Source: Armatimonadota bacterium (lineage in GTDB: Bacteria > Armatimonadota > UBA5829 > DTLH01). Taken from it: 64,000 nt of DNA. The translations under genes were made by a program, and so were the position numbers. The notes below the pieces were generated by a model. The model did no database searches, had not been told where the DNA came from, and saw only the letters and a list, made by a program, of their open reading frames with translations. Shown here piece after piece: positions 2,031 to 36,177 of the stretch (position 1 is its first letter; each line of letters opens with the position of its first letter). The stretch lies in the NCBI GenBank assembly GCA_029551395.1, contig JAKPFN010000014.1:319-64318 (forward strand). The letters run 5' to 3'.

Positions 2031-2876
2031 TTACTCCACCTTCCGCAGAACAACAAATGCTTCTTCAACGCTCTCGAACCTGACGCTGGGCTTTACTTTT
2101 GCGCTTTTCATAAACCCACCGCTTTCCACCTGGACTTTTACCACACGTCCAAGCGGCAGGCCCTTTGGAGCTATTCCTCCCTGCCCGGATGTCACCACTA
2201 TATCGCCAGGCTTGACATCTGCATCTTTTGCTAAATACGTCAGATGCAGCAAGCCGGACTCTCCACCCATGCCCTGACACATTCCCATAGCTCTGGAGCG
2301 CTGTACCATTGCGCCTACACCGCTGTGGTTGTCATTGATTCCTCGTATCAGCGCGCTGGTAGGAGATACTTCGAACACCTGCCCGAGCATACCTCTATGA
2401 GTTATAACTGGCTGTCCAGGTTGAATGCCGCTTTTGCTGCCTCTGTCTATTGTAGCTGTTACAAACCATTCACTGGGGTTTCTGGATATGATTCGCACTG
2501 CCAGCAGTTTGTCAGGGGATTGCTGCTTGAGGGCTAATGCTGATCGGAGCCGCTTTGCCTCGGCTGCATCCTCTCTTAGCTGTGCAACTTCCATGTTGAG
2601 CCGCTTTACTTCTTCACGAAGCTGCCGGTTTTCCTTTTGAAGTAACTTGCGAGACCTTAGAGATTTGCTGATGCCATCAAATACCCCGCTCACACAGCTC
2701 AGCGTATTCTGAAAAGGCTTCATGACCACTCGCACGCAGTCTTCCGGGATGAACGGCTTTACTGAAAATACCTTGTCTTCATCCAGGGTGCTGTTGTGTG
2801 CTACACCTGTCAGCGTGCCAAACGCAATCAACGCAATCAGCACGGCTATCTTCCCATTCCGCAGCATGTGGAGCAT
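2031..2876 (-). CDS. mreC: Rod shape-determining protein MreC
   Basis: 281 aa with an N-terminal TM segment, a coiled coil ('LREEVKRLNMEVAQLREDAAEAKRL') and a C-terminal beta domain. It lies directly downstream of mreB. Confidence 0.85.
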   Translation of the reverse strand: MLHMLRNGKIAVLIALIAFGTLTGVAHNSTLDEDKVFSVKPFIPEDCVRVVMKPFQNTLSCVSGVFDGISKSLRSRKLLQKENRQLREEVKRLNMEVAQLREDAAEAKRLRSALALKQQSPDKLLAVRIISRNPSEWFVTATIDRGSKSGIQPGQPVITHRGMLGQVFEVSPTSALIRGINDNHSGVGAMVQRSRAMGMCQGMGGESGLLHLTYLAKDADVKPGDIVVTSGQGGIAPKGLPLGRVVKVQVESGGFMKSAKVKPSVRFESVEEAFVVLRKVE

Positions 2877-2906
2877 TTATGAATCAGCCTCCTCTGGTCA
2901 AGACAA

Positions 2907-3959
2907 CTACCGCATCCGAGTAGAGCTGATGAGTACCTTCTTCAAGGCCGGATTTGTTTCCGATTCCTCAAGCGCTTTCCCGGTGCCTATAACAACCGCG
3001 CTTAAGGGGTCAGGAGCAATATGTACCGGCATCTGTGTCTCAGCAGACAGCAGCCTATCCAATCCTCTCAACAATGCGCCGCCGCCTGCCAGCACTATAC
3101 CTCGGTCCATGATATCTGCAGAAAGCTCAGGAGGAGTTGCCTCCAGCGTCAGTTTGATACTTTCGATGATTGCATAGACCGGATCATTGATTGCCTCGCG
3201 AATTTCCGTAGAGGTAACAGTGGCGCTTCTTGGAAGTCCGGTTACCAGGTCACGTCCTCTCACCTGCATCTCCATCTCTTCTTCGAGCGGATAAGCCGAA
3301 CCTATCTGGATTTTGACTTCCTCTGATGTTCTGTCACCTATGAGCAGGTTATATACCTTGCGAATGTAAGCGATTATTGCCTCATCTATCTCATCACCAG
3401 CAATCCTTACGGACTTTGCAGTAACTATTCCGCCGAGGGATATGACGGCAACTTCCGTAGTTCCACCACCGATATCAACGATCATAGAGCCTGTCGGCTC
3501 GCTCACAGGCAGACCAGACCCTATTGCTGCAGCCATTGGCTCTTCAATAAGGTATGCATCCTGCGCTCCAGCCTTCTTAGCAGCATCTATAACAGCCCGG
3601 CGCTCAACTTCGGTAACTCCTGAAGGTATACCAACTACCACTTCAGGATGTATAAAGGTGTTACGGCGATGGACCTTGCGGATAAAACCGCGAAGCATTT
3701 GTTCAGTGTGGTCGAAATCTGCAATTACTCCATCTTTTAAGGGCCGTATTGCCACTACATTGCCCGGAGTCCTTCCTAACATACGCTTTGCTTCTTCACC
3801 CACAGCAAGCGGTTTGCGAGTTTCCGTCTCTATTGCAATAACTGACGGTTCGCGCAGCAATATGCCTCGTCCGCGCACATGAACCAATGTATTGGCTGTG
3901 CCCAAATCTATTCCTATCGCACGAGAAAACCTGGTGAATACTTTCGAGAAAATGCCCAT
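2907..3959 (-). CDS. mreB: Rod shape-determining actin-like protein MreB
   Basis: 350 aa. Actin/Hsp70-fold motifs '[12 protein letters not shown]' and '[18 protein letters not shown]'. First gene of the mre operon. Confidence 0.95.
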
Positions 3960-6367: not shown

Positions 6368-7162
6368 TCAAACCTCCAGGTCCTGGTAGTCATCCCGCAG
6401 CCACTTGAGCATTCGCACAAACCCGCCATTTCCGCTCAAGCGGAACTCTACCTCGTCCATCATCGCATGCATCAAACGCAGGCCTAATCCGGCTTCGTTT
6501 AGCAAACTTCCGGAATCATCCGGTGTTGGCTGGCTTATCCCTGGCCCTTCATCCATGACTTCAATGACAAATGCTTTCGGACAGCTCAAGCATCTGAGTA
6601 TAATCTTACTCTTTCCCGGCTCAGGTGAACCATGTTGAAGCGCATTGGCAAGAGCTTCTGTAAGTGCAACCCGGATTTCTGCAATGGACTGATCATCTAT
6701 CTCTGATTCCAATGCAGCATACAGGCCAAGGTCGCGAAGCGAACCAATTACTTCAGCGTCAGCGAGAATAACGGATTCAGTAATCCGCCATTCCTGCCTG
6801 CGAAGATCAGGTTTGTCAGCCTCAGGCTCATCAGACTTCAATGTGAGTACAGACAGCCCCAGCATTGTTGCCAGCCCGCTTACCTGGAGGACTCGCAATA
6901 TTCCCTCATTAGCCCCGGTAACAGCAAACCTTACTCCCAATGCTTGTGCGCGTTTACAAGCAGATGACAGAGTATGCACGGCGCTGGAATCCAGCGATTC
7001 TGCCCTGGAAAGGTCGATGGTAACTTTTGATCCTTTGTCCACAGCACGGGCAAGTACTGACCTGAACTCGCCATTGCAAATAAAATCAATACTGCCCAGC
7101 ACTCGTACAACCTGTTCTTCACCAAGTTCAAGACTGACTATCGGTTTTGGTGCGACTCCCAT
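6368..7162 (-). CDS. Fused anti-sigma-factor antagonist (STAS) / anti-sigma serine kinase (HATPase_c, RsbW-like) protein
   Basis: 264 aa. Residues 1-110 have a STAS fold ('SLDSSAVHTLSSACKRAQALGVRFAVTGA'). The C-terminal half has a GHKL ATPase N-box 'EALANALQHG' and a G-box 'DEGPGI...GLGLRLM'. There is a 14-bp gap to the upstream PP2C gene. Confidence 0.7.
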   Translation of the reverse strand: MGVAPKPIVSLELGEEQVVRVLGSIDFICNGEFRSVLARAVDKGSKVTIDLSRAESLDSSAVHTLSSACKRAQALGVRFAVTGANEGILRVLQVSGLATMLGLSVLTLKSDEPEADKPDLRRQEWRITESVILADAEVIGSLRDLGLYAALESEIDDQSIAEIRVALTEALANALQHGSPEPGKSKIILRCLSCPKAFVIEVMDEGPGISQPTPDDSGSLLNEAGLGLRLMHAMMDEVEFRLSGNGGFVRMLKWLRDDYQDLEV

Positions 7163-7176
7163 CTCCTACCACCTCG

Positions 7177-9933
7177 TTAGCTGGTTCTTGTCAGAGAATT
7201 ATGTACAGCGCTTGGCTCCAATGCAGCCGCAATTATTGCAATATCATCCCTTATTTCTTGATTAGCAAAGTTGGTAGTCTCTTCTATGACCTTTTCAACC
7301 ATTTCACGCGGGCCTACACGTGCATACTTAAAAACAATATCCTGCAGCCCTTCTATAGACAGCATATTACCGGCTTGCTTGGCGTCGATAATGCCATCCG
7401 TATAAAGCAACAGCATATCGCCAGGGTTTAGCATAAGTTCCCTCTCATCATACTCAGAATCCTCCGAGTAACCAACAGGAATACCCGTGCGGTAGAACAT
7501 TATCTGCTGCCTGCCGCCTCTGGTCAGTGCAATCGCTGGCGGATGACCTGCATTTGCATAAGTCATCCATCCTGTATCTGGATCTATCACCGCGCAAAAT
7601 ACCGTTACAACTGCCTTGGATTCAAAATAAGTCATTAGAGCGCGATTTAACAAGTCCAGCACTGCAGCAGGTGAATCTGGCCACTGGAAAAAGAACGCTC
7701 GAATCATATAACGCACCATTGCAGTATGAACGGCTGCCTGAATACCTTTGCCTGTTATATCAGCAACAACAAGAGCTACTTTTTTGTTCGGGAGAGTAAT
7801 CACATCGTAAAGGTCGCCGCCCACACGCGCTTCATCAAGAGCAGGTATATACTTGTGTCCAAACACTAACCTGCCCAACCTGTCAGGAATGACTCCTATC
7901 AGTGTGCTCTGCAGAGTCTCTGCTATCTTATACTCCCTGTGGAACAGCTTCGCATTGGCAATAACCACCGCTGCATGACTCGCAATAGACGCAAGTAAAT
8001 CGATTTCAATAGGCTTGTAATTATGAGGCTGTCTGGTCCATACAGTGATAGTGCCTATTGCTTCTTCACCTACGATTAGAGGCGCAGATATCAGTCCCCG
8101 AAGCTGTTCCCTTTTCACAAGCTCATGCAGACGAATGTCCATCTCACTGCTGATATCCGTCCGATGCACCGGCCGCTTCTCCTGATAAACCACTCCAGAC
8201 CAGCGCTCCCCAGGCTGGATTATTACTTTTTCACAAAACTCCTTGCTGAGATTGTACGCCTCTGCTATTTTCATTCTCCCATCTTTGTCTGCCAAAAATA
8301 TAGCACAGGCATCAACCTCCATTACTTCGCAGGTAGCCCGGACCAGTGAACGCAATACCTGTTTCAAATCCAGCGATGCAGATATCGATTCATCCACTTT
8401 TCTTAGCGAATCCATTACCTTTATTAGCTCTGATGTGCGGCTGTGAGTATAAGCGTTATGAACTGCAATAGCAGCGGTAGAAGCAAATGCACCTAGAAAC
8501 TCTATTTGTTCATGTAACGCCAAATCACCAGCCTGGTCAGTTGGAAAGACTGCCGCAAGCACTCCCACTGGTCTATTGCCGACTACTAATGGCAACATAA
8601 CTGCCGTAAGCCCCTCCAAATCGATATTTGGATACGCAATTGTCGCAGGCACTTCCAGAGACCTAGGAGAATCCAGAGCATGTTCTGCCAGAGGAAGCAT
8701 TGCAGCAACCACACTATCTGTATTTATCTTAGGACTGACAACAGGTTCAAGGGCACCGGTAGTATCGTCCAGGCGGAATATTACTACATATACAGCACCA
8801 AACTGCAGCTTCAATACTTCAGCTATCGACGCTGCAACTCTGCTGATATCAAGGCTTGCTGTAATTGTTCGTGAAACCTCCAGCAAGCTCTGCTGAATAC
8901 GTGTGGTGAACCTCAACGCACGCTGCTGCATCTCAAGACTCTCAGTCATCTGATTGAAACTTTCAGCCAGAGTCTGAAGTTCATCTCTAGTGTTGACATC
9001 CACACGTCGTCTAAGGTCACCAACAGTCACCGCTTCTACTGCATGAGATAACTTCCGAATAGACGAGATTATCCTGTTCCCAATGCCGTAATAAATAGCG
9101 ATTGCAGGCAATACAAGCACCAGCCAAAGTAAATACCAACCTTCTCTGGCAAATGATGGCCCTGGCACTCCTGCCGTACTTATCACTGCAACACGCCAGC
9201 CAAAATCAGGTAAAATCGTAGCCGTGCTATAATCCGATGCATTTCGAAGTTCCACTATCCGGCCTGGCACCAGCATGGAGGCTTTTTCTAAAGCTGCAGT
9301 TGAACTTTTAGATAGATTGTTCCCTGACTTACAGACCAGCTTTCCGTTCCGGTCGATTATTACCGCACTGCGGTTGCCATCCATAACTGATGAAAGCACC
9401 TGACCTATTGCATCTGCTGACACAACTGCATAAATCGTTCCAGTGCCTCCATGGTCAAATGAAACCGGCAGGCTTATGGTAAACACATTCCTCCCTGCCA
9501 GATTATATACAGATGTAACACTCTCATCAGAGCGAAGACTGGATGGAGGTAGTTCTTCCTTTTGCTGACCTGGCTGTAATTCAGGATATCTGTAGTATTT
9601 ATTATTCTCCGTATCTATCAGTCCAGCAGCCAGACATTCGTGGTTATCTGAAACTATTGATTGCAGTAAATTGGAGACCTGCTCAGGATTGTCACTACGT
9701 TGAATCTGACCTAGAGCTTTATAAAGGGAATTGACCAACTCGTCAACAAGAAACTCAACCGAGGTAGCAGCGGCACGAGTTTGTGCAGCCTGCGCACGCG
9801 CGGCAAGGATATCCGCTTGCTTGCAGTAACTTCTGATAATGACATACTGAAGCGCTGCCAGCGGGACAAACGCTGCCAAAAATACAGCCACAAGCCTGCT
9901 TGTGATGCTTTGGAGCCTTGGCCTCAATCCCAT
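7177..9933 (-). CDS. Membrane sensor PP2C-family serine phosphatase (RsbU/SpoIIE-like) with periplasmic sensor, HAMP and two GAF domains
   Basis: 918 aa with two TM segments flanking a ~250-aa extracytoplasmic domain. HAMP ('LRRRVDVNTRDELQTLAESFNQMTESLE'), two GAF-like regions, and a C-terminal PP2C ('DITGKGIQAAV', 'LLLYTDGIIDA'). Confidence 0.85.
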   Translation of the reverse strand: MGLRPRLQSITSRLVAVFLAAFVPLAALQYVIIRSYCKQADILAARAQAAQTRAAATSVEFLVDELVNSLYKALGQIQRSDNPEQVSNLLQSIVSDNHECLAAGLIDTENNKYYRYPELQPGQQKEELPPSSLRSDESVTSVYNLAGRNVFTISLPVSFDHGGTGTIYAVVSADAIGQVLSSVMDGNRSAVIIDRNGKLVCKSGNNLSKSSTAALEKASMLVPGRIVELRNASDYSTATILPDFGWRVAVISTAGVPGPSFAREGWYLLWLVLVLPAIAIYYGIGNRIISSIRKLSHAVEAVTVGDLRRRVDVNTRDELQTLAESFNQMTESLEMQQRALRFTTRIQQSLLEVSRTITASLDISRVAASIAEVLKLQFGAVYVVIFRLDDTTGALEPVVSPKINTDSVVAAMLPLAEHALDSPRSLEVPATIAYPNIDLEGLTAVMLPLVVGNRPVGVLAAVFPTDQAGDLALHEQIEFLGAFASTAAIAVHNAYTHSRTSELIKVMDSLRKVDESISASLDLKQVLRSLVRATCEVMEVDACAIFLADKDGRMKIAEAYNLSKEFCEKVIIQPGERWSGVVYQEKRPVHRTDISSEMDIRLHELVKREQLRGLISAPLIVGEEAIGTITVWTRQPHNYKPIEIDLLASIASHAAVVIANAKLFHREYKIAETLQSTLIGVIPDRLGRLVFGHKYIPALDEARVGGDLYDVITLPNKKVALVVADITGKGIQAAVHTAMVRYMIRAFFFQWPDSPAAVLDLLNRALMTYFESKAVVTVFCAVIDPDTGWMTYANAGHPPAIALTRGGRQQIMFYRTGIPVGYSEDSEYDERELMLNPGDMLLLYTDGIIDAKQAGNMLSIEGLQDIVFKYARVGPREMVEKVIEETTNFANQEIRDDIAIIAAALEPSAVHNSLTRTS

Positions 9934-10300
9934 AGTAGTTCAACTCCTGGACCTTCGAGGCGTCGCAGCTTAGATTGCCACGTAGAGAAGTATAATAGGG
10001 TGTCGCCAGCCTGTCAAGCACTAGTAATTATAAATCTATATATTCATGACTATGACTCTAATGTCTGAAAATGGATTTTTAACTGTTGAATTGATAAGCA
10101 TACTCGTAAATTGTCCTCTGTTTTATTGGTGATATCACTCTGCTGTTGACAGAACCAATGGGTAACATCATCTACAGATTTAATATGCGAGTATGTGTCA
10201 CGATGTTGTCAAAACTGTAGGGCTGTGATAAAGTAGCAGAGTGCCTCTAAAATAGAAGAGAGAATAATTTGCAAGCCGCTGGCACCTAGGAGGATAGTCC

Positions 10301-15146: not shown

Positions 15147-15803
15147 GTGACCAATGGGTTTATCTATGATTTCGGCATAAGCAATGAAGAATTGCTTAGC
15201 CGATGCAAAGAGAACGACGAGTCTGCACTTCGCGAGTTGCTGCGCAGGCATGAGAAGCCTGTGTACGGCCTTTTATATCGGATGCTCGGGAACCACGAGG
15301 ATGCCGAAGAAGCCCTGGCAGATGTCTTCGTTAAAGTCTGGAGAGCTGCAGGAAGCTTCCGAGGCACAGCGAAGTTCACTACGTGGTTATACCGCATTGC
15401 AGGCAATACTGCTCGGGATGTGCTGAGGTCACGCAAGGCCAGACCGGAAATTGCAATCGAGGACGATATTTTAACAGAGACCGACTTGGTCGGTACAGCA
15501 GCAGTTGATCCTGAAACAACCGTGATCAACGCAGATGAAGTTGCCAGAATCGAGCTGGCAATGCAGAAACTGACACCTGAAGATCGGCTTCTGGTTCACC
15601 TATATCATATACAGGAGTTGGACCTTGAAGAGATTAACAGGATAACCGGTATAAACAGGTCGAACTTAAAAGTGAAACTTTTCAGGGCAAGGCAAAAGTT
15701 GAGAACTCACCTGGAGAGTCTTGACCAGGAGAAAAATAATGAACTGCAACCAGATACAACCGAATCTATTGGACTACAACCGGGGTCTGCTGAATCAGCG
15801 TGA
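15147..15803 (+). CDS. ECF (group IV) RNA polymerase sigma factor
   Basis: 218 aa with a GTG start after SD 'agagga'. Region 2 ('LLRRHEKPVYGLLYRMLGNHEDAEEALADVFVKVW') and region 4 ('LDLEEINRITGINRSNLKVKLFRARQKL'). Confidence 0.85.
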   Translation: MTNGFIYDFGISNEELLSRCKENDESALRELLRRHEKPVYGLLYRMLGNHEDAEEALADVFVKVWRAAGSFRGTAKFTTWLYRIAGNTARDVLRSRKARPEIAIEDDILTETDLVGTAAVDPETTVINADEVARIELAMQKLTPEDRLLVHLYHIQELDLEEINRITGINRSNLKVKLFRARQKLRTHLESLDQEKNNELQPDTTESIGLQPGSAESA

Positions 15804-16203
15804 GGCTGCTGCTGTTCGGGCACACCTCAACGTATGCCCGGAGTGCCGTGCGGTGATGGATGCAGAAATTAAACTTGCGGATAGACTTTCTGCAGCACCA
15901 GCAATAGAGCCGCAATCTGATGTGTGGACGCGCGTGGAAGCTAAAATCAGCACGCACAGGCACAAAAGGTCTGTCTTTGACCTGTTCTTTGCTGGCACTG
16001 CCAGAAAATTAGCGACGGCTGTGACTGCTCTCACTGTCCTGATTGCGGTAATGATAGCCATGTATGAGCCGCCTGCGCCTCCTTCTCAAAAGGAAAGCAT
16101 TAACCAGGCTATCGTTATGATGCAGGTCCAACCGGTCGAACCAGCAGCATCCGTTGGAGATACTACAGACGAAATGATGAAGGTGCTAGAAAATGCACTT
16201 TAA
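15739..16203 (+). CDS. Membrane-anchored zf-HC2 anti-sigma factor
   Basis: Internal ATG at 15739 after SD 'aggag'. 'HLNVCPECRAV' gives an H-x3-C-x2-C zinc motif. A single TM segment, 'LATAVTALTVLIAVMIAMY'. Overlaps the 3' end of the sigma gene. Confidence 0.6.
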   Translation: MNCNQIQPNLLDYNRGLLNQREAAAVRAHLNVCPECRAVMDAEIKLADRLSAAPAIEPQSDVWTRVEAKISTHRHKRSVFDLFFAGTARKLATAVTALTVLIAVMIAMYEPPAPPSQKESINQAIVMMQVQPVEPAASVGDTTDEMMKVLENAL

Positions 16204-16990
16204 TAAAAAACCAGGAAAAATATTTAATCCGGCTGCATTAATCCTGATACTGTTTGCTGTGCTTATGCTGGGCTTTTCAGCAGCTCCTACTCAGGCAAAA
16301 GGCTCAAAAGGCAGACAGGAGATTAATCTGAACAAAGAACAGAGGGACAGACTTCAACGCCACATCGAACAAAACAAAGGTGAAGTGGCTGATGTCAGAC
16401 GGCAGATTCAGGCTGCTCGCTCAGACCTGTCTCAGCAGCTTCGCCAGTATGATGTTGACGAACGCAAAGTCCAGCAGACCATCCGCCGGATCAACGACCT
16501 GCAGACCAGACTTCAGCTAATCCATCTTGAAAATCAGGTCAAGCTGCGCGATATCCTGACCAAAGAGCAGTTTGCCGACCTTCGCGAAGCCGTTGGCAGC
16601 CGAGGAATGGATGGAGACGAAGTTCACGCATGGCCAGAAAGAGACGGCCCACACGCAAGAAACGTTCAGAACCTGGACCTATCAGAACAGCAGCAGGATC
16701 GGATAAACAAGCTGTTTCAACGATCCACTGAATCAATGAACGTACTCATACGCAAGGCCAAAGGCGATGCTGGCAGTCTTCGAGAGCTTTATCTGAGCTA
16801 CAGCCTGGATACAAAACGTGCTAAGGAGATTATCAACCGGCTAAGCAATACCAGGTTGGAAATCTTGAAAACGATGGTGGACCGTCAGGTTGAACTGCGG
16901 AATATCTTGACCAAGAAGCAGTTTGAAGCGCTGGCAAAAAGTATGCCTGGGCATGGCGGTGGATCGGGTAAAGGCCGCGGACGAAGGTAG
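16193..16990 (+). CDS. Periplasmic Spy/CpxP-family (LTXXQ) protein with a duplicated domain
   Basis: Signal peptide 'ILILFAVLMLGFSAAPTQA'. Two LTXXQ motifs ('ILTKEQF', 'ILTKKQF'). Gly-rich basic C-terminus. Start overlaps the anti-sigma stop. Confidence 0.6.
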   Translation: MHFNKKPGKIFNPAALILILFAVLMLGFSAAPTQAKGSKGRQEINLNKEQRDRLQRHIEQNKGEVADVRRQIQAARSDLSQQLRQYDVDERKVQQTIRRINDLQTRLQLIHLENQVKLRDILTKEQFADLREAVGSRGMDGDEVHAWPERDGPHARNVQNLDLSEQQQDRINKLFQRSTESMNVLIRKAKGDAGSLRELYLSYSLDTKRAKEIINRLSNTRLEILKTMVDRQVELRNILTKKQFEALAKSMPGHGGGSGKGRGRR

Positions 16991-26143: not shown

Positions 26144-28288
26144 TCACGCTGAATAGAATCCACTCAGATAATGTTTACAGATGAACTGCTCTACACGCCA
26201 GGTAGACTTGCCATTTTCTGTAAACTCATAAACGCCATTAGCCCGAGTCATAAAGCCGAGTTCCACCATGTAGCGCCTTGTTGCGCAGTAATCAGAACAG
26301 ACCTGGGCAATACCCTCAGTAACATCGCGCTCGCTGTAATTTTTCATCTCAGACAGGCCAAAACGCATCACTGCATCAGGCGATATATTCGCTACCGGAT
26401 TTACCTTCCGGCGCTTCTCAGCCAGTCTCATATCAACATCCGATAGCTTAGGCTCTCTGCGTCGAATTCCTCCGAAAACCGCTTTAGCTGCAATTTTCTG
26501 CAGCTTTGCATCACCATTTCGCATCAATTCCTGCAGTGCGACCTGCGAGCTTACCGTTCCCATCTCACCAAGCGCTGCTGTCGCTGCTTCGCGGACTTGC
26601 CTTTCCTTACTGTTTGTCATCTCGATTAAAAGATGCTCAGCCTGCCCTATTTGCAACCTGCCAAGTGCTGTTATAGCTACAGCCTTTTCCTGCCCTTTGC
26701 TGTTTTGTACAAGGTTTATCAACTCTTCAGCAGATGCAATATCGCCAATCTCCGATAGCGCGAAGACCGCCGCAACCCTGACTGCAGTCTCAGTATCCGA
26801 AAGAAAACCTCTTATAAGGCCCGAGTAATCACCTGCTTGCAGATGTCCCAGTACTCTAACAGCCTGGCTGCGAAGCTCTAAAGGTCCATGTTCCGCAATA
26901 GATGCAGCCTCCTTCGCTAAATCATCTAACAGCCCGCCGCCGATGTCTTCCACACGAAGCGGAGACCACTTTTCACGAGTACGCAGGTCGTTCAGAAACT
27001 GCTCCCGGCTGACTTCATACATTGTTCCTGGACAAAGCGACCTTGCTATATACTCAAGCCCCAGCAGACCGGCAGCCTGTTGCTTCACATCGTTGCTTTT
27101 CAGCATCTTCAGCAACTCATCACCAAAACGCGCTCCAGTTCTGACCAATGCCTGCAGAACCCATGAAGACTGGCTCTCCTTACTACCGTATGTTGCAATA
27201 AAACGCTCCTTCAGAATAGGAAACGCTGCATCAGCATAACACATCAATGTATTCACAAAGAGTACTGCAGGGCAGGAGTGTCTACAAGCCTGAATCATAT
27301 CCAGCAGTATTCCGGCCTTTGCCTGTTCATCCGCAGAATGCATGACGAGCCTGTCCAGAAGCATGTAAGCATCTCGTGACGCCATATTCGACATACCATC
27401 TCTAGGATCAACAATCCCGCACCTGGAAGCATACTGCACCAGGATATCCCGAGCACGCGATGCCCTTGGCTCCTGTCCAGAAAAACAGCAGTCCAGCACA
27501 ATATCTATTGCTTCACTTCCAAGGTGAGGCAGCAGAATGGCAAGATTTCCGATTGCATCTTCTGCTGTTACCATCAACTCTATCAAACGCTCTGGAGACT
27601 TTCTGAGGACTATACTTAACCTCTCCGGCGCATTTGGTTCATCGTTGAACATACGCAAAAGAACTGCAATCTCAGCTTGTACTACTTCTTTGAACCTGTC
27701 ATCCGGGATGGCAGGGATTTCTTGATGTTCGGTCATTTGCTCCATTACCTCTTTCAGTGCTTGACGCGCACGATGCAGGCGGCTCATAACCGTACCCTTG
27801 GATATCTCAAGGAACCTGGAAATCTCGTCATAGGACAACTCTTCATAATAATGCAGGACCAGGACAAGGCGGTGGGACGCTGACAGCGATGCAAGACCAT
27901 AGGACATCCGGGCATAAATAGACCGGTCTTCCATATCATCTTCAGCCGCAGCAATCTGTTCTTCTTCCAGCTCAACAAACTGATGGCTGTTGCGTCGGTA
28001 CCACATCCTGCAGACGTTGAGTGTCAGAGCCTTCAACCAGCCTGCGAACCTCTCCGGGTTGCGAAGCTGCCCCAGCTTCAGGTAGGCTTCCACAAATGAG
28101 TCATGCGCTAACTCCTCAGCATCCGGCACATTGCCGGCCATATTGAGGCATACACGATAAACCATTGTGTAGTACCGGTCCATAAGCAGGCTGAACGCCT
28201 CTTTGTCTCCCTCCAACACTGCTGAAATTAATTTACTATCGTCCACCTTATCTGCTCCTGCACAATGTTGCATTGAGCACCACTGCAT
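26144..28288 (-). CDS. ECF-type sigma factor fused to a long C-terminal extension containing HEAT/PBS-lyase-like repeats
   Basis: Track ORF 26144..28339, of which ~715 aa are used. The N-terminal ~200 aa have sigma region 2 ('DKEAFSLLMDRYYTMVYRVCLNMAG...DSFVEAYLKL') and region 4 ('LSYDEISRFLEISKGTVMSRLHRARQALK'). Residues ~560-650 carry repeats 'AVRVAAVFALSEIGD', 'AVAITALGRLQ' and 'VREAATAALGEMG'. Confidence 0.7.
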   Translation of the reverse strand: MQWCSMQHCAGADKVDDSKLISAVLEGDKEAFSLLMDRYYTMVYRVCLNMAGNVPDAEELAHDSFVEAYLKLGQLRNPERFAGWLKALTLNVCRMWYRRNSHQFVELEEEQIAAAEDDMEDRSIYARMSYGLASLSASHRLVLVLHYYEELSYDEISRFLEISKGTVMSRLHRARQALKEVMEQMTEHQEIPAIPDDRFKEVVQAEIAVLLRMFNDEPNAPERLSIVLRKSPERLIELMVTAEDAIGNLAILLPHLGSEAIDIVLDCCFSGQEPRASRARDILVQYASRCGIVDPRDGMSNMASRDAYMLLDRLVMHSADEQAKAGILLDMIQACRHSCPAVLFVNTLMCYADAAFPILKERFIATYGSKESQSSWVLQALVRTGARFGDELLKMLKSNDVKQQAAGLLGLEYIARSLCPGTMYEVSREQFLNDLRTREKWSPLRVEDIGGGLLDDLAKEAASIAEHGPLELRSQAVRVLGHLQAGDYSGLIRGFLSDTETAVRVAAVFALSEIGDIASAEELINLVQNSKGQEKAVAITALGRLQIGQAEHLLIEMTNSKERQVREAATAALGEMGTVSSQVALQELMRNGDAKLQKIAAKAVFGGIRRREPKLSDVDMRLAEKRRKVNPVANISPDAVMRFGLSEMKNYSERDVTEGIAQVCSDYCATRRYMVELGFMTRANGVYEFTENGKSTWRVEQFICKHYLSGFYSA

Positions 28289-28537
28289 TTTTGCGCTTCC
28301 AAATAGAGGATGCAGCAACTTGCCAAATATTCCATTCATCGGGGAAATTTGTTCTTTATCAGAAAAAAACTCCGCTGTCTTGAATCACTACCCATTGTAT
28401 CCTATGTCGTCCAGCTATTACAGCATCCTGGCTTATTCTGTGTGTTGTCATGCTCTACAGTGGGTATGTTAACTGTAAAGCCTGCAAAATTAAATCAACG
28501 CAGCTTCCGAAAAATGATTGTGCATCAGGAGGTCAAT

Positions 28538-29778: not shown

Positions 29779-32595
29779 CTACTTCACAACCTTCACTTTT
29801 ATGACAACCTGATCGCTTGTCCTCAGCCCATCGATAACAAAGAACCTGTACTCTATCTCCTTTGGTTCATTCGGAGCTGTAGCTTTCAGTATTGGGTCTT
29901 TAGAGAGATCAGCTCTCAGCCAATGTCCATTCTCAGACCATCTGTATATCAGTGGCTGGCCTTCAGGATCGTAGCTCTTTGATCCGTCGATAACATACTC
30001 TTCGCCGCACTTCACTACAATCTCTTCTGGAGCAATAGCCACCGGTTTCAAGTTCTTCTCCTTGATGGCATCCGGGATAACAGGCTTCACTACAGGCGTG
30101 ATGCCTGTCGATGGCTGCAGACTTGTCCGCTTGGTGAATATACCACGAATCCTCTCACCTCTGAAGAATGCTTCGTTCATCTCAGTAAGCGGCAGCCAGT
30201 GGAATTCAGCCTGGTCTCCGCTGACAATCTTCAGAAGGATCAGCCCTTCAACGCTCCAAACATTCGGAGTGAAGGCAGTGTCAGTCTTTGCGGTTCCATA
30301 GGGGTTCCAGACTCCAATCGCACCATCTACGTCATCTGTGTCCGGCGAGTCCCAGGTCGAGTCAGTCTCTCTGGGAATGATAAACCGTCCGTCCTTGTCG
30401 GTATTGCCCATGAACTTCGGTCTATCGGCAAAATATTTGGTCCCAGCATCCTGTGCGCCGGTCTGTGACACATGGTATACATAAACAGCCGCGCCTGAAA
30501 GCGGCTCATCGTTAACATCATATATCTGCAGAACATGCCCAAGGCTTGGAATCAACCTGCCTTGAGTTCCCCAGAACTTCTCTCCCCGATACCCGGCAAA
30601 ATACTGCACTTGACCTGCATGTGCCGGATGCAGCCACATGTGGCAGTAGTCCATAAGCGGGGTATATCCGCCGCCGCAGGGAATAGTCTGCGCTGAAGAG
30701 CACATTACGCTGCCATGCGACACATCCGGTAGAAGCTCTCCACCCGCATAATACTCACCATTCTCATCTTTCAGAAAGATGTTGTCTACCTTTACCGGAT
30801 AGCCATACAGGTCTGGCAGTGCTATGCAGCAGTGACCAAACTCATGAACCAGCCCAGATGATATAACCAATTGATTCCCTGACTTGTTGTCGGCAACAGG
30901 GAAACCTCCGTCATAAAGGTGTGCTTCAAGGTCGTAAGGCTCCTTACTGAGGTCATCCGACGAAAGCGCATAGAACGCATCGGTGCGGATGGCATCTTTA
31001 ACACCAACAGGGCTTGTAGTCGGGTAGACTGCTTCCTGAAGCATCAAAGTGACTCTGTGAGCCTGTGCGTTGAACCAGTCATAGTAGCTGAACGAACCGA
31101 CCATATTGATTTTCTTAGCATCATAGTCGTCATCCAGTACGCATTGCTTATACCCCCAGCGCATAGCACGGGCAGTATTCAACTCGCAGCGTTCGTTGTT
31201 GGCTTCACAGATTTCCCCTATCTTCTTATCAGGGTCTACTGTTACTTTAATCCATACCGGATCATTGGGCCAGGTATAGTTGAAAGTCAATTTGATCTCT
31301 TCCCGCGGCTTCATTGACTTCTCAATGACCTGCTCTTGAGTCTCGACTGGTTTCTCATCCTTATCCAGCCGGAAATTACCGTTTTTATCAGGAATAAGCT
31401 GGAACCGGACTACTGCACCTGCAGGAACGTCTCTATAGCCAAAGTTGGCAATATGCGCCACAGCCTGCACCCGCTCTCCTGGAGCCGGCCACCATTTAGG
31501 ACCATTAGATGAGTAACGAGGAAGCCGCGAAACACAATACAAGTCCAAATCAGGCTGTTCAGGAGAGATAACTTCAATGTTATAGGCGTCTTTCATCCCT
31601 CTGAACTCGGCAGTGAGCTTGCACTTGCCGACTGACTTGCCAGTTACAATACCGTCTTTGTCTACGGTGGCAACTTTCTCATCAGATGTGGACCACTTGA
31701 TAAACGGTTTTGCGTCAAAATCAGACCAGTTGCCATATCCCGCGATATTCTCAGTGATGCGAACCATCTGTCCATCCAGCTTAGCCCGCATGCCAAACTG
31801 CTTGGGACATCCGTTGACGACTCTCTTGTCAGACGGCACATCACACGCATCAGGATCTATCTTTATGGCAGTAAACGGAGCTGTCGCGAAATAATCCCGG
31901 TAAACAACGCTTATCATATCACGAGACAGCTCAGTTTTAGCCTCTTTGCGGATGATAAGTTCGTCCATAGCCGCATCTGAGGTCTCATCGCCGATGTAAA
32001 GCCGCTTATCATCCATCTTCTGAACATCAAAAAACTGGTTGCCGCTTGCAATCGGGCCATCGACAGCAACCTTATCGATCCAAAGCGGCATACCAAGCGG
32101 CTTATTATCTTTACTGAACCACACGATAGCGATATGGTGCCACTGTCCGGCCTTCCAGTCAGAAACATCAGCACGGGATGATGTAACTTTCTTTGGAGAG
32201 GCCATAACATACCGGAGGAATCCCTTTTCAGACTTCTCCACAAGCAGTCCGTTCTTATTCATATCACCAACACGGAGGATAACATGCCTCTTACCATCAT
32301 TCCCATTCCAGTTGGGCTTTATCCAAAAACTGATGTAACCAGATTCCTGCGAAAGATTGACTCCTTCGATGGCTGCAGGTCTTGAAAGCAAGACTCCTTT
32401 TCCCGCAGTGCCTGGAACTTCAGGAAGTCCGGCTGCAGGACTGCTCATTCTAGCGCTATTATCAAAAGCAGCATCACTGAACCAACTAAGCAAGGTTTCT
32501 GCCGACTCCAAATCTGCACAAAACAGCGGAGCAGCAGCCAACAACCCGAGCAGTACAAATAATACAATTAACCTCAAAATGCGGCTCCTTTCCAT
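29779..32595 (-). CDS. Large secreted multidomain zinc metalloprotease-like protein, paralog 1 (LamG-like + BIG2 + M6/InhA-like zincin + C-terminal Ig/PKD-like)
   Basis: 938 aa with a signal peptide 'LIVLFVLLGLLAAAPLFCA'. LamG/ConA-like block ('FWIKPNWNGNDG...QWHHIAIVW'). BIG2 ('VATVDKDGIVTGKSVGKCKLTAEF'). Zincin motif 'LVHEFGHCCIALPDLYGYP'. C-terminal 'SKSYDPEGQPLIYRW'. Confidence 0.6.
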   Translation of the reverse strand: MERSRILRLIVLFVLLGLLAAAPLFCADLESAETLLSWFSDAAFDNSARMSSPAAGLPEVPGTAGKGVLLSRPAAIEGVNLSQESGYISFWIKPNWNGNDGKRHVILRVGDMNKNGLLVEKSEKGFLRYVMASPKKVTSSRADVSDWKAGQWHHIAIVWFSKDNKPLGMPLWIDKVAVDGPIASGNQFFDVQKMDDKRLYIGDETSDAAMDELIIRKEAKTELSRDMISVVYRDYFATAPFTAIKIDPDACDVPSDKRVVNGCPKQFGMRAKLDGQMVRITENIAGYGNWSDFDAKPFIKWSTSDEKVATVDKDGIVTGKSVGKCKLTAEFRGMKDAYNIEVISPEQPDLDLYCVSRLPRYSSNGPKWWPAPGERVQAVAHIANFGYRDVPAGAVVRFQLIPDKNGNFRLDKDEKPVETQEQVIEKSMKPREEIKLTFNYTWPNDPVWIKVTVDPDKKIGEICEANNERCELNTARAMRWGYKQCVLDDDYDAKKINMVGSFSYYDWFNAQAHRVTLMLQEAVYPTTSPVGVKDAIRTDAFYALSSDDLSKEPYDLEAHLYDGGFPVADNKSGNQLVISSGLVHEFGHCCIALPDLYGYPVKVDNIFLKDENGEYYAGGELLPDVSHGSVMCSSAQTIPCGGGYTPLMDYCHMWLHPAHAGQVQYFAGYRGEKFWGTQGRLIPSLGHVLQIYDVNDEPLSGAAVYVYHVSQTGAQDAGTKYFADRPKFMGNTDKDGRFIIPRETDSTWDSPDTDDVDGAIGVWNPYGTAKTDTAFTPNVWSVEGLILLKIVSGDQAEFHWLPLTEMNEAFFRGERIRGIFTKRTSLQPSTGITPVVKPVIPDAIKEKNLKPVAIAPEEIVVKCGEEYVIDGSKSYDPEGQPLIYRWSENGHWLRADLSKDPILKATAPNEPKEIEYRFFVIDGLRTSDQVVIKVKVVK

Positions 32596-33366: not shown

Positions 33367-36177
33367 TTACTCTACTACATTTACCTTGATGCTTACCGGC
33401 TCGCTCACGCGCAGGCCATCGATTACATACAGCCTGTACCTAACCTCTCCCGGCTTGCCAGGAGCCTTGATAGTGCAGGTGGAATCCGTAGATAGATCAG
33501 GCTTCAGCCATCCTGCCTGCTCTCCCCATCTGTAGGTAAGAGGCTGGCCTTCCGGATCGTAGCTCTTTGACCCATCAAGCGTGAACTCCTCGTTGCACTT
33601 CACTGTCAGTTCCTGCGGGGTTACAACAGCAACCGGCTTCAGATTGGTCTTCCTGATCGATTCAGGAATCTCAGGCCTTACAACCCGCGTTATACCGTTT
33701 GATGGTTGCAAGCTGGTCCTTATGTGGTAGACTCCCCTGTTCTTGTTGCCTTTAAAGAATTGCTCATTGAACTCCGTAAGAGACATCCAGTAGAACTCAG
33801 TCTGATTACCGCTCACAATCTTAATGAGCAACAGCCCTTCCACGGTCCAGACATTGGGGGTGAACGCAGTGTCCGTCTTCACCCGGCCAAACGGGTTCCA
33901 GACGCTGATTGAACCATCTACCTCGTCCGTATCAGGATCATCCCATGACCGATCCGTTTCATTTGGGAACCGCCAGCGGCCGTCTTTATCCGTATTGCCG
34001 ACGAACTTCGGCCTGTCCGGGAAATACTTAGTGCCCGCATCCTGGAGGGATGTGTTAATAACGTGATACACATATACCGCAGCACCGGAAAGAGGTTGAT
34101 CGTTGATGTCATAAATCTTCAACCAGTTCTCGAACGCAGGAATCAACCTGCCCTGAATTCCCCAAAACCTGTTGCCTCTGTAACCGGCAAAGTACTGAAT
34201 CTCTCCAGCATGTGCCGGATGCAGCCACATATGGCAGTGATTCATAAGCGAATCATAACTCACGCCACATGGCACGCCGTTAGCTGATGAGAGCGGCACG
34301 ATGTTGTCTCTATCTCGAATGAGCGGCATCAGTTCGCTGCCTGCATACGGTTTACCATTCTCATCCTTCAAGAGCACCGACCAGTAGTTCACCGGATAAC
34401 CGTAAAGGTCCGGCAGAGCCACACAGGTATGCCCGAACTCATGCAGGATTGCCGCATCTATCGCCATCAGGTCGATAGGCTCTCTGACAGGGAATCCTCC
34501 ATCATAGTAAGGACCTTCTTTTTCCCAAGGCTCATCTTCCCACCTGGTATCTCCAAGCTTCAGTGCATATGTTTTATCGTTCCGCAGTGTTTCCCGCACC
34601 CCATCAGGGCTTGTGGTAGGCAATACGGTCTGCCGCAGCAGTGCCTCGAACCTGTAGAGCTGACCATTGATCCAGTCATACTCGCTGAACGATCCTACAT
34701 GATTGATCTTCCGATTGTTGTAGAAATCCTCGAGTTGCGCCGGATCGTAACCCATGTGAAGCGCGCGGGCTATGTTCATCTCACAGCGCTCGTTGTTAGC
34801 TTCGCAAATCTCTGCAATCTTGTTTGCCGGGTCTACGGTCACGCGAACCCATATAGGATCATCAGACCATGTCCAGTCAAACTCTACAGATTCCTCTTCC
34901 CTGGGCTTCAACGCTTTGGAGATGACCTTGCGCTGGGTAGCGATGGGTGTTTCGCTTCTGTCCAGCCTTAAATTGTTGTTGGAGTCTGGAATCAGCTCAA
35001 AAACAACCTCAACTCCCGCCGGAGCAGTCTTGTAACCAAAGTTGATAATCCGCGCAACGAACCTGACCTTCTCACCAGGAGATGGTCTGTCCTTGTCATC
35101 GCCGTCCTTGTACTTAGGGAATCTCTCCACATACACCAGATCCAGGTCCGGCTGCTCGATTGGAATAACCTCAAGCTGATAGGTTGCCTTCATCCCTCTG
35201 AACTCGGCTGTTAAGGTGCATTTCCCGAGAGATTTACCTGTCACCCGTCCATTGGCATTCACGGTAGCAATCTTCGGGTCGGATGTAGTCCATTTGATAA
35301 ACGGCTTTGCATCGAATTCTGACCATTGGCCGTAACGAACGGCAAAATCGGTGACTCTGGTCATCACCCCGTTCATCTCAGCCATCAGACCATACTGCTT
35401 CTCGCATCCAATGACCACACGTGGATCCATTGGGCCATACATCGGTCTCAAGTCTATTGCAACCCTGGTATAAGGCGCAGAGCGGAAGAAATCCCGATAT
35501 ACCGTGGCAATCTGCCCATGAGGACCTTCAGTATCGAACCTGTCCCGCATGATCAGCTCATCGATCACACAGTCTGACGTAGCATCTCCGATAATTACCC
35601 GCTTATCTGCCATCTTGTCTGGATTCATGAACTCGCTTCCGCCAAAGATTGGACCAGCAACAGCCCATTTGTCTATCCAGAGCGGCAGTCCGAGCGGCTT
35701 ACCTCTTACTGACATCCATGCTATTGCAACATGGTGCCACTGTCCGGCTTTCCAGTTAGAGACATCAGCACGAGCAGCAGTAACTTTCGTCGGGCTAGCC
35801 ATCACATAGCGCAGCATGCCTTTGTCCGACTTCTCAACCAAAAGACCATTCGTAGCCGGGTCACCGATTGTAAGTATTCGGTGAGTCTTTCCATCATTTC
35901 CATTCCAGTTCGGCTTGATCCAGAACGTTATAAGCCCGTTGTCCTGCTTGAGAAGCGGATTTTCGATGGCTGCAGACCTACTGAGTACAACTCCTTTGCC
36001 TGCTGTGCCTGGAGCTTCAGGAAGTCCGGCAACAGGCTTCGCTGTGCGGACACTCTTCGGCACGGTTGAATCGGTAAACCAGGCTACAACCGCCTCAGTC
36101 GTGTCCTGCGCAGTCGCGAGAGATGGCGCAAGAAGCACTGCAGATACCAGTACTATAGACAACACTAATTTCAACAA
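33367..36177 (-). CDS. Large secreted multidomain zinc metalloprotease-like protein, paralog 2
   Basis: 936 aa. Same architecture as 29779..32595 at roughly 50-55% identity by eye. Signal peptide, 'FWIKPNWNGNDG', and the zincin motif 'ILHEFGHTCVALPDLYGYP'. Confidence 0.6.
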   Translation of the reverse strand: MLKLVLSIVLVSAVLLAPSLATAQDTTEAVVAWFTDSTVPKSVRTAKPVAGLPEAPGTAGKGVVLSRSAAIENPLLKQDNGLITFWIKPNWNGNDGKTHRILTIGDPATNGLLVEKSDKGMLRYVMASPTKVTAARADVSNWKAGQWHHVAIAWMSVRGKPLGLPLWIDKWAVAGPIFGGSEFMNPDKMADKRVIIGDATSDCVIDELIMRDRFDTEGPHGQIATVYRDFFRSAPYTRVAIDLRPMYGPMDPRVVIGCEKQYGLMAEMNGVMTRVTDFAVRYGQWSEFDAKPFIKWTTSDPKIATVNANGRVTGKSLGKCTLTAEFRGMKATYQLEVIPIEQPDLDLVYVERFPKYKDGDDKDRPSPGEKVRFVARIINFGYKTAPAGVEVVFELIPDSNNNLRLDRSETPIATQRKVISKALKPREEESVEFDWTWSDDPIWVRVTVDPANKIAEICEANNERCEMNIARALHMGYDPAQLEDFYNNRKINHVGSFSEYDWINGQLYRFEALLRQTVLPTTSPDGVRETLRNDKTYALKLGDTRWEDEPWEKEGPYYDGGFPVREPIDLMAIDAAILHEFGHTCVALPDLYGYPVNYWSVLLKDENGKPYAGSELMPLIRDRDNIVPLSSANGVPCGVSYDSLMNHCHMWLHPAHAGEIQYFAGYRGNRFWGIQGRLIPAFENWLKIYDINDQPLSGAAVYVYHVINTSLQDAGTKYFPDRPKFVGNTDKDGRWRFPNETDRSWDDPDTDEVDGSISVWNPFGRVKTDTAFTPNVWTVEGLLLIKIVSGNQTEFYWMSLTEFNEQFFKGNKNRGVYHIRTSLQPSNGITRVVRPEIPESIRKTNLKPVAVVTPQELTVKCNEEFTLDGSKSYDPEGQPLTYRWGEQAGWLKPDLSTDSTCTIKAPGKPGEVRYRLYVIDGLRVSEPVSIKVNVVE

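Follow-up and report, generated by a model that had tools for sequence, protein, structure and literature searches.

The stretch of DNA analysed here, called the window below, comprises 64,000 nucleotides of contig JAKPFN010000014.1 from an Armatimonadota bacterium, a metagenome-assembled genome (assembly GCA_029551395.1). It carries on its minus strand a pair of adjacent genes encoding a membrane sensor phosphatase and a protein in which a STAS domain is fused to an RsbW/SpoIIAB-like serine kinase. The sensor gene (7177..9933, minus strand; 918 aa) is followed by the STAS-kinase gene (6368..7162, minus strand; 264 aa), and both have ATG starts. The 14-nt spacer between them (7163..7176, minus strand) holds the GGAGG/AGGAG ribosome-binding site of the second gene. 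These sizes and positions and the 14-bp gap were as given in an earlier reading of the window made from its letters and translations (the original prediction). The gene upstream of the pair, encoding an M17 aminopeptidase, is divergently oriented, and the downstream neighbour, an NTP transferase gene whose end lies 10 nt from the STAS-kinase stop, is convergent, indicating from gene layout that the sensor and STAS-kinase genes form a two-gene operon. A candidate sigma-70-like promoter (TTGACA-17-TATACT; 9989..10017, minus strand) scored 11/12 in a consensus scan and lies about 55 nt 5' of the sensor start codon; it is a consensus match only.

The sensor phosphatase and the fused STAS-kinase protein

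The sensor was predicted to have a periplasmic domain, a HAMP domain, two GAF domains and a C-terminal PP2C domain, and the Pfam matches agreed with these calls, the match in the extracytoplasmic region being sub-threshold only. All features described in this section lie on the minus strand. Transmembrane segment 1 (residues 14-33; 9835..9894) gave a peak of 2.39 on the Kyte-Doolittle scale with a 19-residue window, and transmembrane segment 2 (residues 266-285; 9079..9138) was placed by hydropathy. The extracytoplasmic sensing region between them (residues 34-265, about 230 aa; 9139..9834) matched dCache_1 with an E-value of 2.9e-6 and 27.5 bits against a cutoff of 45; by this match it is probably Cache-like, and the fold assignment is tentative. 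The HAMP domain (residues 284-334; 8932..9084) was matched at 4.1e-14. Two stretches of the whole sensor were matched by the Pfam GAF and GAF_2 families (1.6e-24). The best of them was GAF domain 2 (residues 521-658; 7960..8373), which was covered by GAF_2, GAF and GAF_3, and GAF domain 1 (residues ~361-493; 8455..8853) was matched at 1e-6 when that segment was searched in isolation. A linker helix and a PP2C/SpoIIE phosphatase domain (residues ~668-906; 7216..7932; Pfam SpoIIE, 1.7e-47) complete the protein. The metal-binding motifs of the PP2C domain (GGD707, D725-ITGKG, TD846G and D896-D897) were invariant in 7/7 aligned orthologous sensors. No RsbU-type N-terminal domain was found on the sensor, where Pfam reported HAMP and GAF domains instead.

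The second gene encodes, as had been proposed, a STAS domain and an RsbW/SpoIIAB-like GHKL kinase in one polypeptide. Pfam placed an RsbV/SpoIIAA-like STAS domain at residues 18-101 (6860..7111; E-value 4.7e-15) and HATPase_c_2 at residues 151-253 (3.3e-21), within an RsbW/SpoIIAB-type GHKL serine kinase domain that spans residues 126-254 (6401..6787). The NCBIfam models for anti-sigma antagonists, SpoIIAB and RsbW matched below their cutoffs, and sequence matches in the PDB were to RsbW (6m36, 1.3e-6) and TM1442 (1.1e-5). An AlphaFold2 (AF2) model built from 54 sequences had a pLDDT of 91.3 and a pTM of 0.89. When compared with the PDB by Foldseek, its N-terminal half matched RsbV, SpoIIAA and TM1442 and its C-terminal half SpoIIAB, RsbW and UsfX, and no solved chain spanning both the STAS and the kinase half was returned.

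Identification of a phosphorylatable serine or threonine in the STAS domain had been suggested as a check of the original prediction. Alignment with the DS(A/S)G acceptor motif of TM1442 singled out Ser59 (codon 6986..6988) as the predicted phospho-acceptor in the motif D58-S59-S60-A61, and S59 opens helix 59-74 when DSSP is applied to the AF2 model. In an alignment of the close family (A1), D58 and S59 were invariant, as were D26 and D50 of the same domain. The kinase domain has an N-box (E169..N173..H177), a G1 box (D204-E-G-P-G208) and a G2 box (G225-L-G227); the original prediction had named a lack of these GHKL boxes as evidence against itself, and all three were present. Judged by such motifs, every catalytic and acceptor feature of the RsbU/V/W cycle is present in the pair. 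In addition, R143 aligned with the conserved helix-1 arginine of RsbW and was nearly invariant across 54 diverse fused proteins. Its equivalent in SpoIIAB, R20, contacts both SpoIIAA and sigma-F. The other non-catalytic residues of the kinase domain that were invariant in the close family were W125, I127, E129-S130-V131, C191, C194 and K253-W254.

The two domains are joined by a 24-residue linker (residues 102-125; 6788..6859) that ends in a conserved R-R-Q-[DE]-W, the beginning of the longer conserved stretch R-R-Q-[DE]-W-R-I-T-E-S-V in the close-family alignment, and that was modelled with a pLDDT of 79-85. With a pTM as high as 0.89 for a chain whose domains have about 110 and 130 residues, the STAS and kinase domains are predicted to be packed in a confidently defined mutual arrangement. 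When extended, the linker could span up to ~80 Å, which should let the STAS domain dock canonically, within its own chain or onto a dimer partner. A clade-specific CxxC motif (C191-L-S-C194; 6581..6592) lies in a beta-hairpin after the N-box helix and was invariant in the 14 close homologues described below. Of 100 fused proteins, 25 contained both cysteines and 71 had C191 alone; the pair may be a redox or metal site that serves as an input.

Relatives of the fused protein and of the gene pair

A word-indexed search of NCBI, JGI, ENA and Logan assemblies yielded 14 close homologues (43-54% identity, 245-266 aa), and the same fused architecture was found in 14/14, which stem from independent assemblies. 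A protein 100% identical to the fused window protein carries an NCBI name. Exhaustive comparison of a profile with 1.84 billion cluster representatives returned 1,127 matches at E<=1e-10. When 161 proteins from two protein searches were sorted with custom hidden Markov models of the STAS and kinase domains, 100 had the order STAS-kinase, 26 had the order kinase-STAS and 22 were kinase only. Among the 100 STAS-kinase proteins, 87 had a serine or threonine at position 59, 73 had retained the N-box and the G1 box, and 62 combined this acceptor residue with the boxes. The original prediction had also considered that a frameshift might have merged two separate genes by error. Merging of rsbV-like and rsbW-like genes was ruled out by the uninterrupted open reading frame in all close homologues and in about 100 diverged proteins (100/161), and was further opposed by the linker, which is conserved in sequence and modelled as ordered. 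The chance that a sequencing or assembly frameshift created the fusion is thus negligible.

The order of the two domains had been described as unusual, and this was contradicted by the counts above and by CapK and VapK, two characterised proteins with the same order. The canonical gene orders rsbV-rsbW, spoIIAA-spoIIAB and rsbS-rsbT all place STAS before kinase. Since the fused order is collinear with them, STAS-kinase is the expected product of fusion by loss of a stop codon.

The fused arrangement occurred in at least ~86 clusters at 50% identity among the top matches. All six clusters that carried an NCBI organism name (P0001, P0008, P0011, P0041, P0048 and P0038/P0185) were Armatimonadota, and some of them shared just 24-28% identity with the window protein, pointing to several paralogous STAS-kinase families in this phylum. 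In a genome scan with alignment A1, no more than 3 species representatives, all Armatimonadota, contained the close family; the remaining matches were stand-alone or differently fused kinases. Little was added by a profile search of a 5.8-billion-protein database with a diverse alignment (A2), in which candidates were confined to proteins with shared words. No plasmid homologues of the STAS-kinase protein were found.

Twelve distinct contexts, the window among them, included DNA upstream of the fused gene, and in 11 of these a sensor-PP2C was encoded directly upstream of the STAS-kinase gene or fused to it. The sensor-PP2C gene ended immediately 5' of the STAS-kinase gene in the window and in L001, L003, L005, L007, L010, L032, L035, L036 and L037, sensors with the architecture of the window protein being found at this position in related loci. 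In L034 the PP2C was part of the same open reading frame, and the sole exception was L033, with no adjacent PP2C. The layout was kept down to ~25% identity (relatives at ~25-30%) and across genomic GC contents of 47 to 66%, and the sensor modules differed between relatives (HAMP-GAF-GAF, a 1,239-aa GAF/PAS sensor, PAS-PAS). The two genes share 4 nt in L003 and L007; such start/stop overlaps indicate translational coupling, consistent with one operon. The single open reading frame of L034 (P0028; 7001-9997) encodes 998 aa in the order HAMP-GAF-PP2C-STAS-(degenerate) kinase and is missing the counterpart of GAF domain 1. It connects the two genes of the window as a Rosetta stone, with the limit that it is a single metagenomic sequence in which an indel artefact at a 4-nt overlap is possible. 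The flanking M17 peptidase and NTP transferase genes recurred only in close relatives, and the flanks elsewhere differed.

Two of these loci carry additional signalling genes beside the pair. In L005 (401-4109; same contig as L008, an Armatimonadota metagenome-assembled genome), three same-strand genes directly 5' of the pair encode a PAS-rich sensor, a stand-alone receiver and a REC-PAS-HATPase_c_2 protein, which could provide a second input or stand in as kinase. In the distant relative L037, a second, divergent phosphatase gene of the type RsbRD_N-SpoIIE (2368-3549, minus strand) lies beside the PAS-PAS-SpoIIE sensor gene, an arrangement that would provide two phosphatases for one fused switch.

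In one subclade (P0011, P0014, L010 and the triple fusion P0028), the N-box asparagine and the G1 box were lost and D58-S59 was kept. N173 was replaced by Q, H or R, and the partner PP2C retained all metal ligands. Genes for these pseudokinase members were located at 10001-10744 in L001, 31-768 in L006, ~7989-8729 in L010 and 7001-9997 in L034.

A proposed tethered partner switch and its alternatives

On balance, and with modest confidence, we favour the interpretation that the pair is a tethered RsbV-RsbW-like switch for which the sensor phosphatase would be the trigger and the built-in kinase the reset, and which would act on an unlinked partner. Of this proposal, the closed cycle of phosphorylation at Ser59 has the better support. 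The architecture, the intact catalytic and acceptor motifs, the conservation of the gene pair and the confident domain packing in the model are the observations behind it; we infer which domain phosphorylates which, in what direction the signal runs, and that there is a target and of what kind.

The operon would be collinear with rsbU-rsbV-rsbW, with RsbV and RsbW joined in one chain and with no sigma gene. By analogy with RsbU/V/W and SpoIIE/SpoIIAA/SpoIIAB, the C-terminal GHKL kinase would, in the presence of ATP, phosphorylate Ser59 in the STAS domain at the N-terminus of the same chain or of the partner chain in a dimer, and the phosphorylated STAS domain would leave the partner-binding face of the kinase around R143. 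The freed face could then hold an unlinked target, which might be a sigma factor or another protein encoded elsewhere. A signal perceived by the membrane sensor through its extracytoplasmic Cache-like domain, its cytoplasmic HAMP domain and its two GAF domains would be relayed through the helical linker to activate a PP2C dimer, which would strip the phosphate from Ser59. Present at very high local concentration owing to the 24-residue tether, the dephosphorylated STAS domain would re-dock on the kinase and expel the target, until re-phosphorylation of Ser59 by the kinase reset the switch. The tether would fix a 1:1 stoichiometry and would insulate the module from paralogous sensor/switch pairs of Armatimonadota.

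The pair shares with RsbU/RsbV/RsbW and SpoIIE/SpoIIAA/SpoIIAB the set of PP2C, STAS and GHKL kinase in the same gene order, the acceptor motif, the GHKL boxes and the PP2C ligands, and these systems supply the closest solved structures of each half. It differs from RsbU/V/W in that STAS and kinase form one polypeptide and that no sigma gene follows, so that the target encoded in a classical RsbU/V/W operon, a group-3 sigma factor, has no counterpart here. Its phosphatase is a membrane sensor (Cache-like, HAMP, two GAF), whereas those of the classical systems are RsbT-activated or sporulation-specific. Phosphatases with comparable input modules are known. The tandem GAF-PP2C protein RsbZ of C. 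difficile and HAMP-PP2C proteins resemble the window sensor in their HAMP/GAF modules, helical linker and SpoIIE-family PP2C domain; however, the window sensor adds a two-transmembrane extracytoplasmic domain, and its substrate would be the fused STAS-kinase instead of a stand-alone RsbV. HAMP- and GAF-linked PPM phosphatases that act via a coiled-coil linker have been documented (PMC12143880).

A precedent for a cycle within one chain is Rv1364c of Mycobacterium tuberculosis (PAS-PP2C-kinase-STAS), whose kinase domain phosphorylates the fused STAS domain at S600, whose PP2C domain reverses this, and whose sigma factor target, SigF, is reached in trans. Like the window pair, it carries kinase and STAS on a single chain, is served by a cognate PP2C and has no sigma gene next to it. 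The two differ in sensor modules and in order, kinase then STAS in Rv1364c and STAS then kinase in the window, and the PP2C is part of the same chain in Rv1364c and the product of a separate gene in the window; P0028 fuses all three in the order PP2C-STAS-kinase.

In a different scheme the dephosphorylated STAS domain, set free from the kinase or exposed on the fused protein, would itself bind and regulate an effector, as do SypA, HsbA and the STAS domain of All4160, and the kinase would be a built-in off-switch only. Documented partner switches with output through a STAS protein (SypE/SypA, HenR/All4160) lend weight to this possibility, and SypE/SypA, HsbR/HsbA and HenR/All4160 resemble the window pair in their kinase, phosphatase and STAS modules, in the absence of an adjacent sigma gene and in output by protein-protein interaction. 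Their fusions are different, since SypE and HsbR join a kinase to a phosphatase and All4160 joins STAS to an enzyme, and none joins STAS to a kinase. The invariance of D26, D50, D58 and S59 is also consistent with a STAS output, as is the pseudokinase subclade, which conserved Ser59 and the STAS domain while the kinase motifs decayed. However, many invariant non-catalytic residues of the kinase domain were retained even in the pseudokinases, which points to a binding role of that domain, and no effector gene was linked to the pair. We consider output through STAS rather unlikely, although sequence data alone cannot separate it from the tethered switch.

The pair could also be likened to a stressosome, with the fused protein as a counterpart of RsbS and RsbT. 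A released kinase would bind back to the sensor phosphatase and activate it, forming a feedback loop upstream of another module. The rsbS-rsbT gene order is likewise STAS then kinase, and RsbT activates RsbU via its linker. Against this, the sensor carries GAF domains in place of the RsbU-type N-terminal domain, no RsbR-like co-antagonist or second STAS gene was found nearby, and the best NCBIfam matches of the fused protein were SpoIIAB and RsbW. Moreover, the stressosome phosphatase that acts on RsbS is not a sensor phosphatase; it is RsbX, a small PP2C without a sensor domain. We regard a feedback loop of this type as highly improbable.

CapK (HTH-STAS-GHKL) and VapK (STAS-GHKL), the only characterised proteins found in the STAS-then-GHKL order, were described experimentally in EMBO J 2026 (PMC13373217). 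Their internal STAS domain is not a phospho-acceptor; together with the GHKL domain it forms a groove that binds single-stranded DNA, to which it contributes an aromatic stacking residue (W68 in CapK, F54 in VapK). The substrate of these kinases is a second STAS protein encoded next to them (CapS or VapS), and they regulate immune or toxin operons (PMC13373217). By analogy, the internal STAS domain of the window protein could be a regulatory, ligand-binding or pseudo-substrate module, its kinase acting on a separate substrate elsewhere, a STAS protein or some other protein, and the sensor PP2C reversing that reaction. The proteins are similar in size, the A2 profile was collinear with VapK over both domains (VapK residues 1-286), and the high pTM of the model would fit a fixed regulatory packing equally well. 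The similarity was nevertheless marginal, with no BLASTP match and an hhalign probability of 22.5% (E-value 9e-4). In this low-confidence alignment, D58-S59 of the window protein faced R56-P57 of VapK, so that the residue opposite Ser59 is a proline and VapK would have no acceptor serine, whereas the window family holds D58 and S59 invariantly. CapS and VapS always adjoin their kinases, but no separate STAS gene was found in the window or beside the pair in related loci. The conserved neighbour is instead a phosphatase, fused to the switch in one relative, and no phosphatase partner has been described for CapK or VapK. The window protein also lacks a defence context, its neighbours being housekeeping genes and PADLOC giving 0 matches on the window. 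Membership of the CapK/VapK group is unlikely in view of the weak VapK match without an acceptor serine, the missing second STAS gene, the pairing with a phosphatase and surroundings unrelated to defence, and a mode of action like theirs appears quite improbable.

Several observations count against the tethered switch itself. Self-phosphorylation cannot be universal in the STAS-kinase family as far as the motifs tell, because one subclade without the N-box asparagine and G1 box keeps Ser59 and an intact PP2C. The predicted packing may place Ser59 away from the ATP site, as in the ligand groove of CapK/VapK. No third gene was conserved beside the pair in the 12 contexts, and a sigma gene was adjacent to it in none of the loci examined (the window and all related loci). 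No SigF-like match was obtained in the window or in the 37 loci examined, although this is a weak test.

The original prediction presented the pair as a partner switch without a sigma factor. The lack of an adjacent sigma gene held in every locus, but the idea is not new in itself, such systems and non-sigma outputs (SypE/SypA, HenR/All4160) being already well documented. Indeed, every component and the general logic are already known, as are single-chain kinase/STAS proteins (Rv1364c, CapK/VapK), and no new principle is involved. What is new is the combination of a dedicated sensor PP2C with a STAS-kinase that has its own acceptor serine, which had no characterised representative in the literature searched; apart from CapK/VapK, these searches returned no description of a two-domain STAS-kinase partner switch. 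The cassette is recurrent in metagenomes and so far appears typical of Armatimonadota. A bolder view, which we think doubtful, is that the sensor-PP2C and STAS-kinase pair represents a distinct two-gene signalling class whose paralogous families have expanded in this phylum. The fused protein would then be a self-contained phospho-switch, a 'response-regulator equivalent' that controls a non-sigma target through its open and closed states, possibly gated by the CxxC motif as well, and that in some lineages works with a dead kinase domain and so independently of its own kinase activity.

Partner switching is a major non-two-component signalling mechanism of bacteria, and mechanistic knowledge of it comes nearly all from separate antagonist and kinase proteins that regulate an operon-encoded sigma factor. 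The cassette shows that a tethered antagonist-kinase with a dedicated sensor phosphatase is a recurrent, conserved unit, in a phylum with almost no experimental work on signalling. If the tether makes the switch intramolecular, the fused protein would allow STAS/kinase exchange and its kinetics to be studied simply, in one protein, and the identity of the target would reveal what such orphan modules control.

Sigma factors and other genes of the window

As stated in the original prediction, the nearest extracytoplasmic function (ECF) sigma factor gene lies about 5 kb away in a separate operon. This gene (15147-15803, plus strand; 5.2 kb from the pair) overlaps a zf-HC2 anti-sigma gene (15721-16203, plus strand), and a Metal_resist/LTXXQ (Spy/CpxP-like) gene (16193-16990, plus strand) completes a self-contained operon of the envelope-stress type (15147-16990, plus strand). 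The ECF sigma factor is an unlikely target of the module because it belongs to this operon with its own zf-HC2 anti-sigma, and a further ground for rejecting it was that syntenic loci do not conserve it near the pair. The switch could act on a sigma factor in trans or have an output of another kind, the sequence being compatible with both. No other STAS, RsbW-like or PP2C genes were found in the window.

The genes around the pair encode the M17 peptidase, the NTP transferase, LmeA and MreBCD. Rfam and tRNA scans of the 64-kb window gave nothing. The remaining genes of the window are housekeeping genes except for one 16 kb away (26144-28339, minus strand; 731 aa), a second sigma-type gene that was absent from the original prediction. 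At the N-terminus its product carries an ECF-type sigma-70 part (regions 2 and 4, residues ~35-198), and the long C-terminal extension fused to this part includes HEAT repeats (~520-620) and DUF2087 (663-705); from its domains the protein resembles a sigma factor that brings its own regulatory extension. Further along, two paralogous proteins of ~937 aa with Laminin_G_3, Big_2 and CARDB domains are encoded on either side of a DUF6144 gene (29779-32595 and 33367-36177, both minus strand); they are probably surface or secreted proteins.

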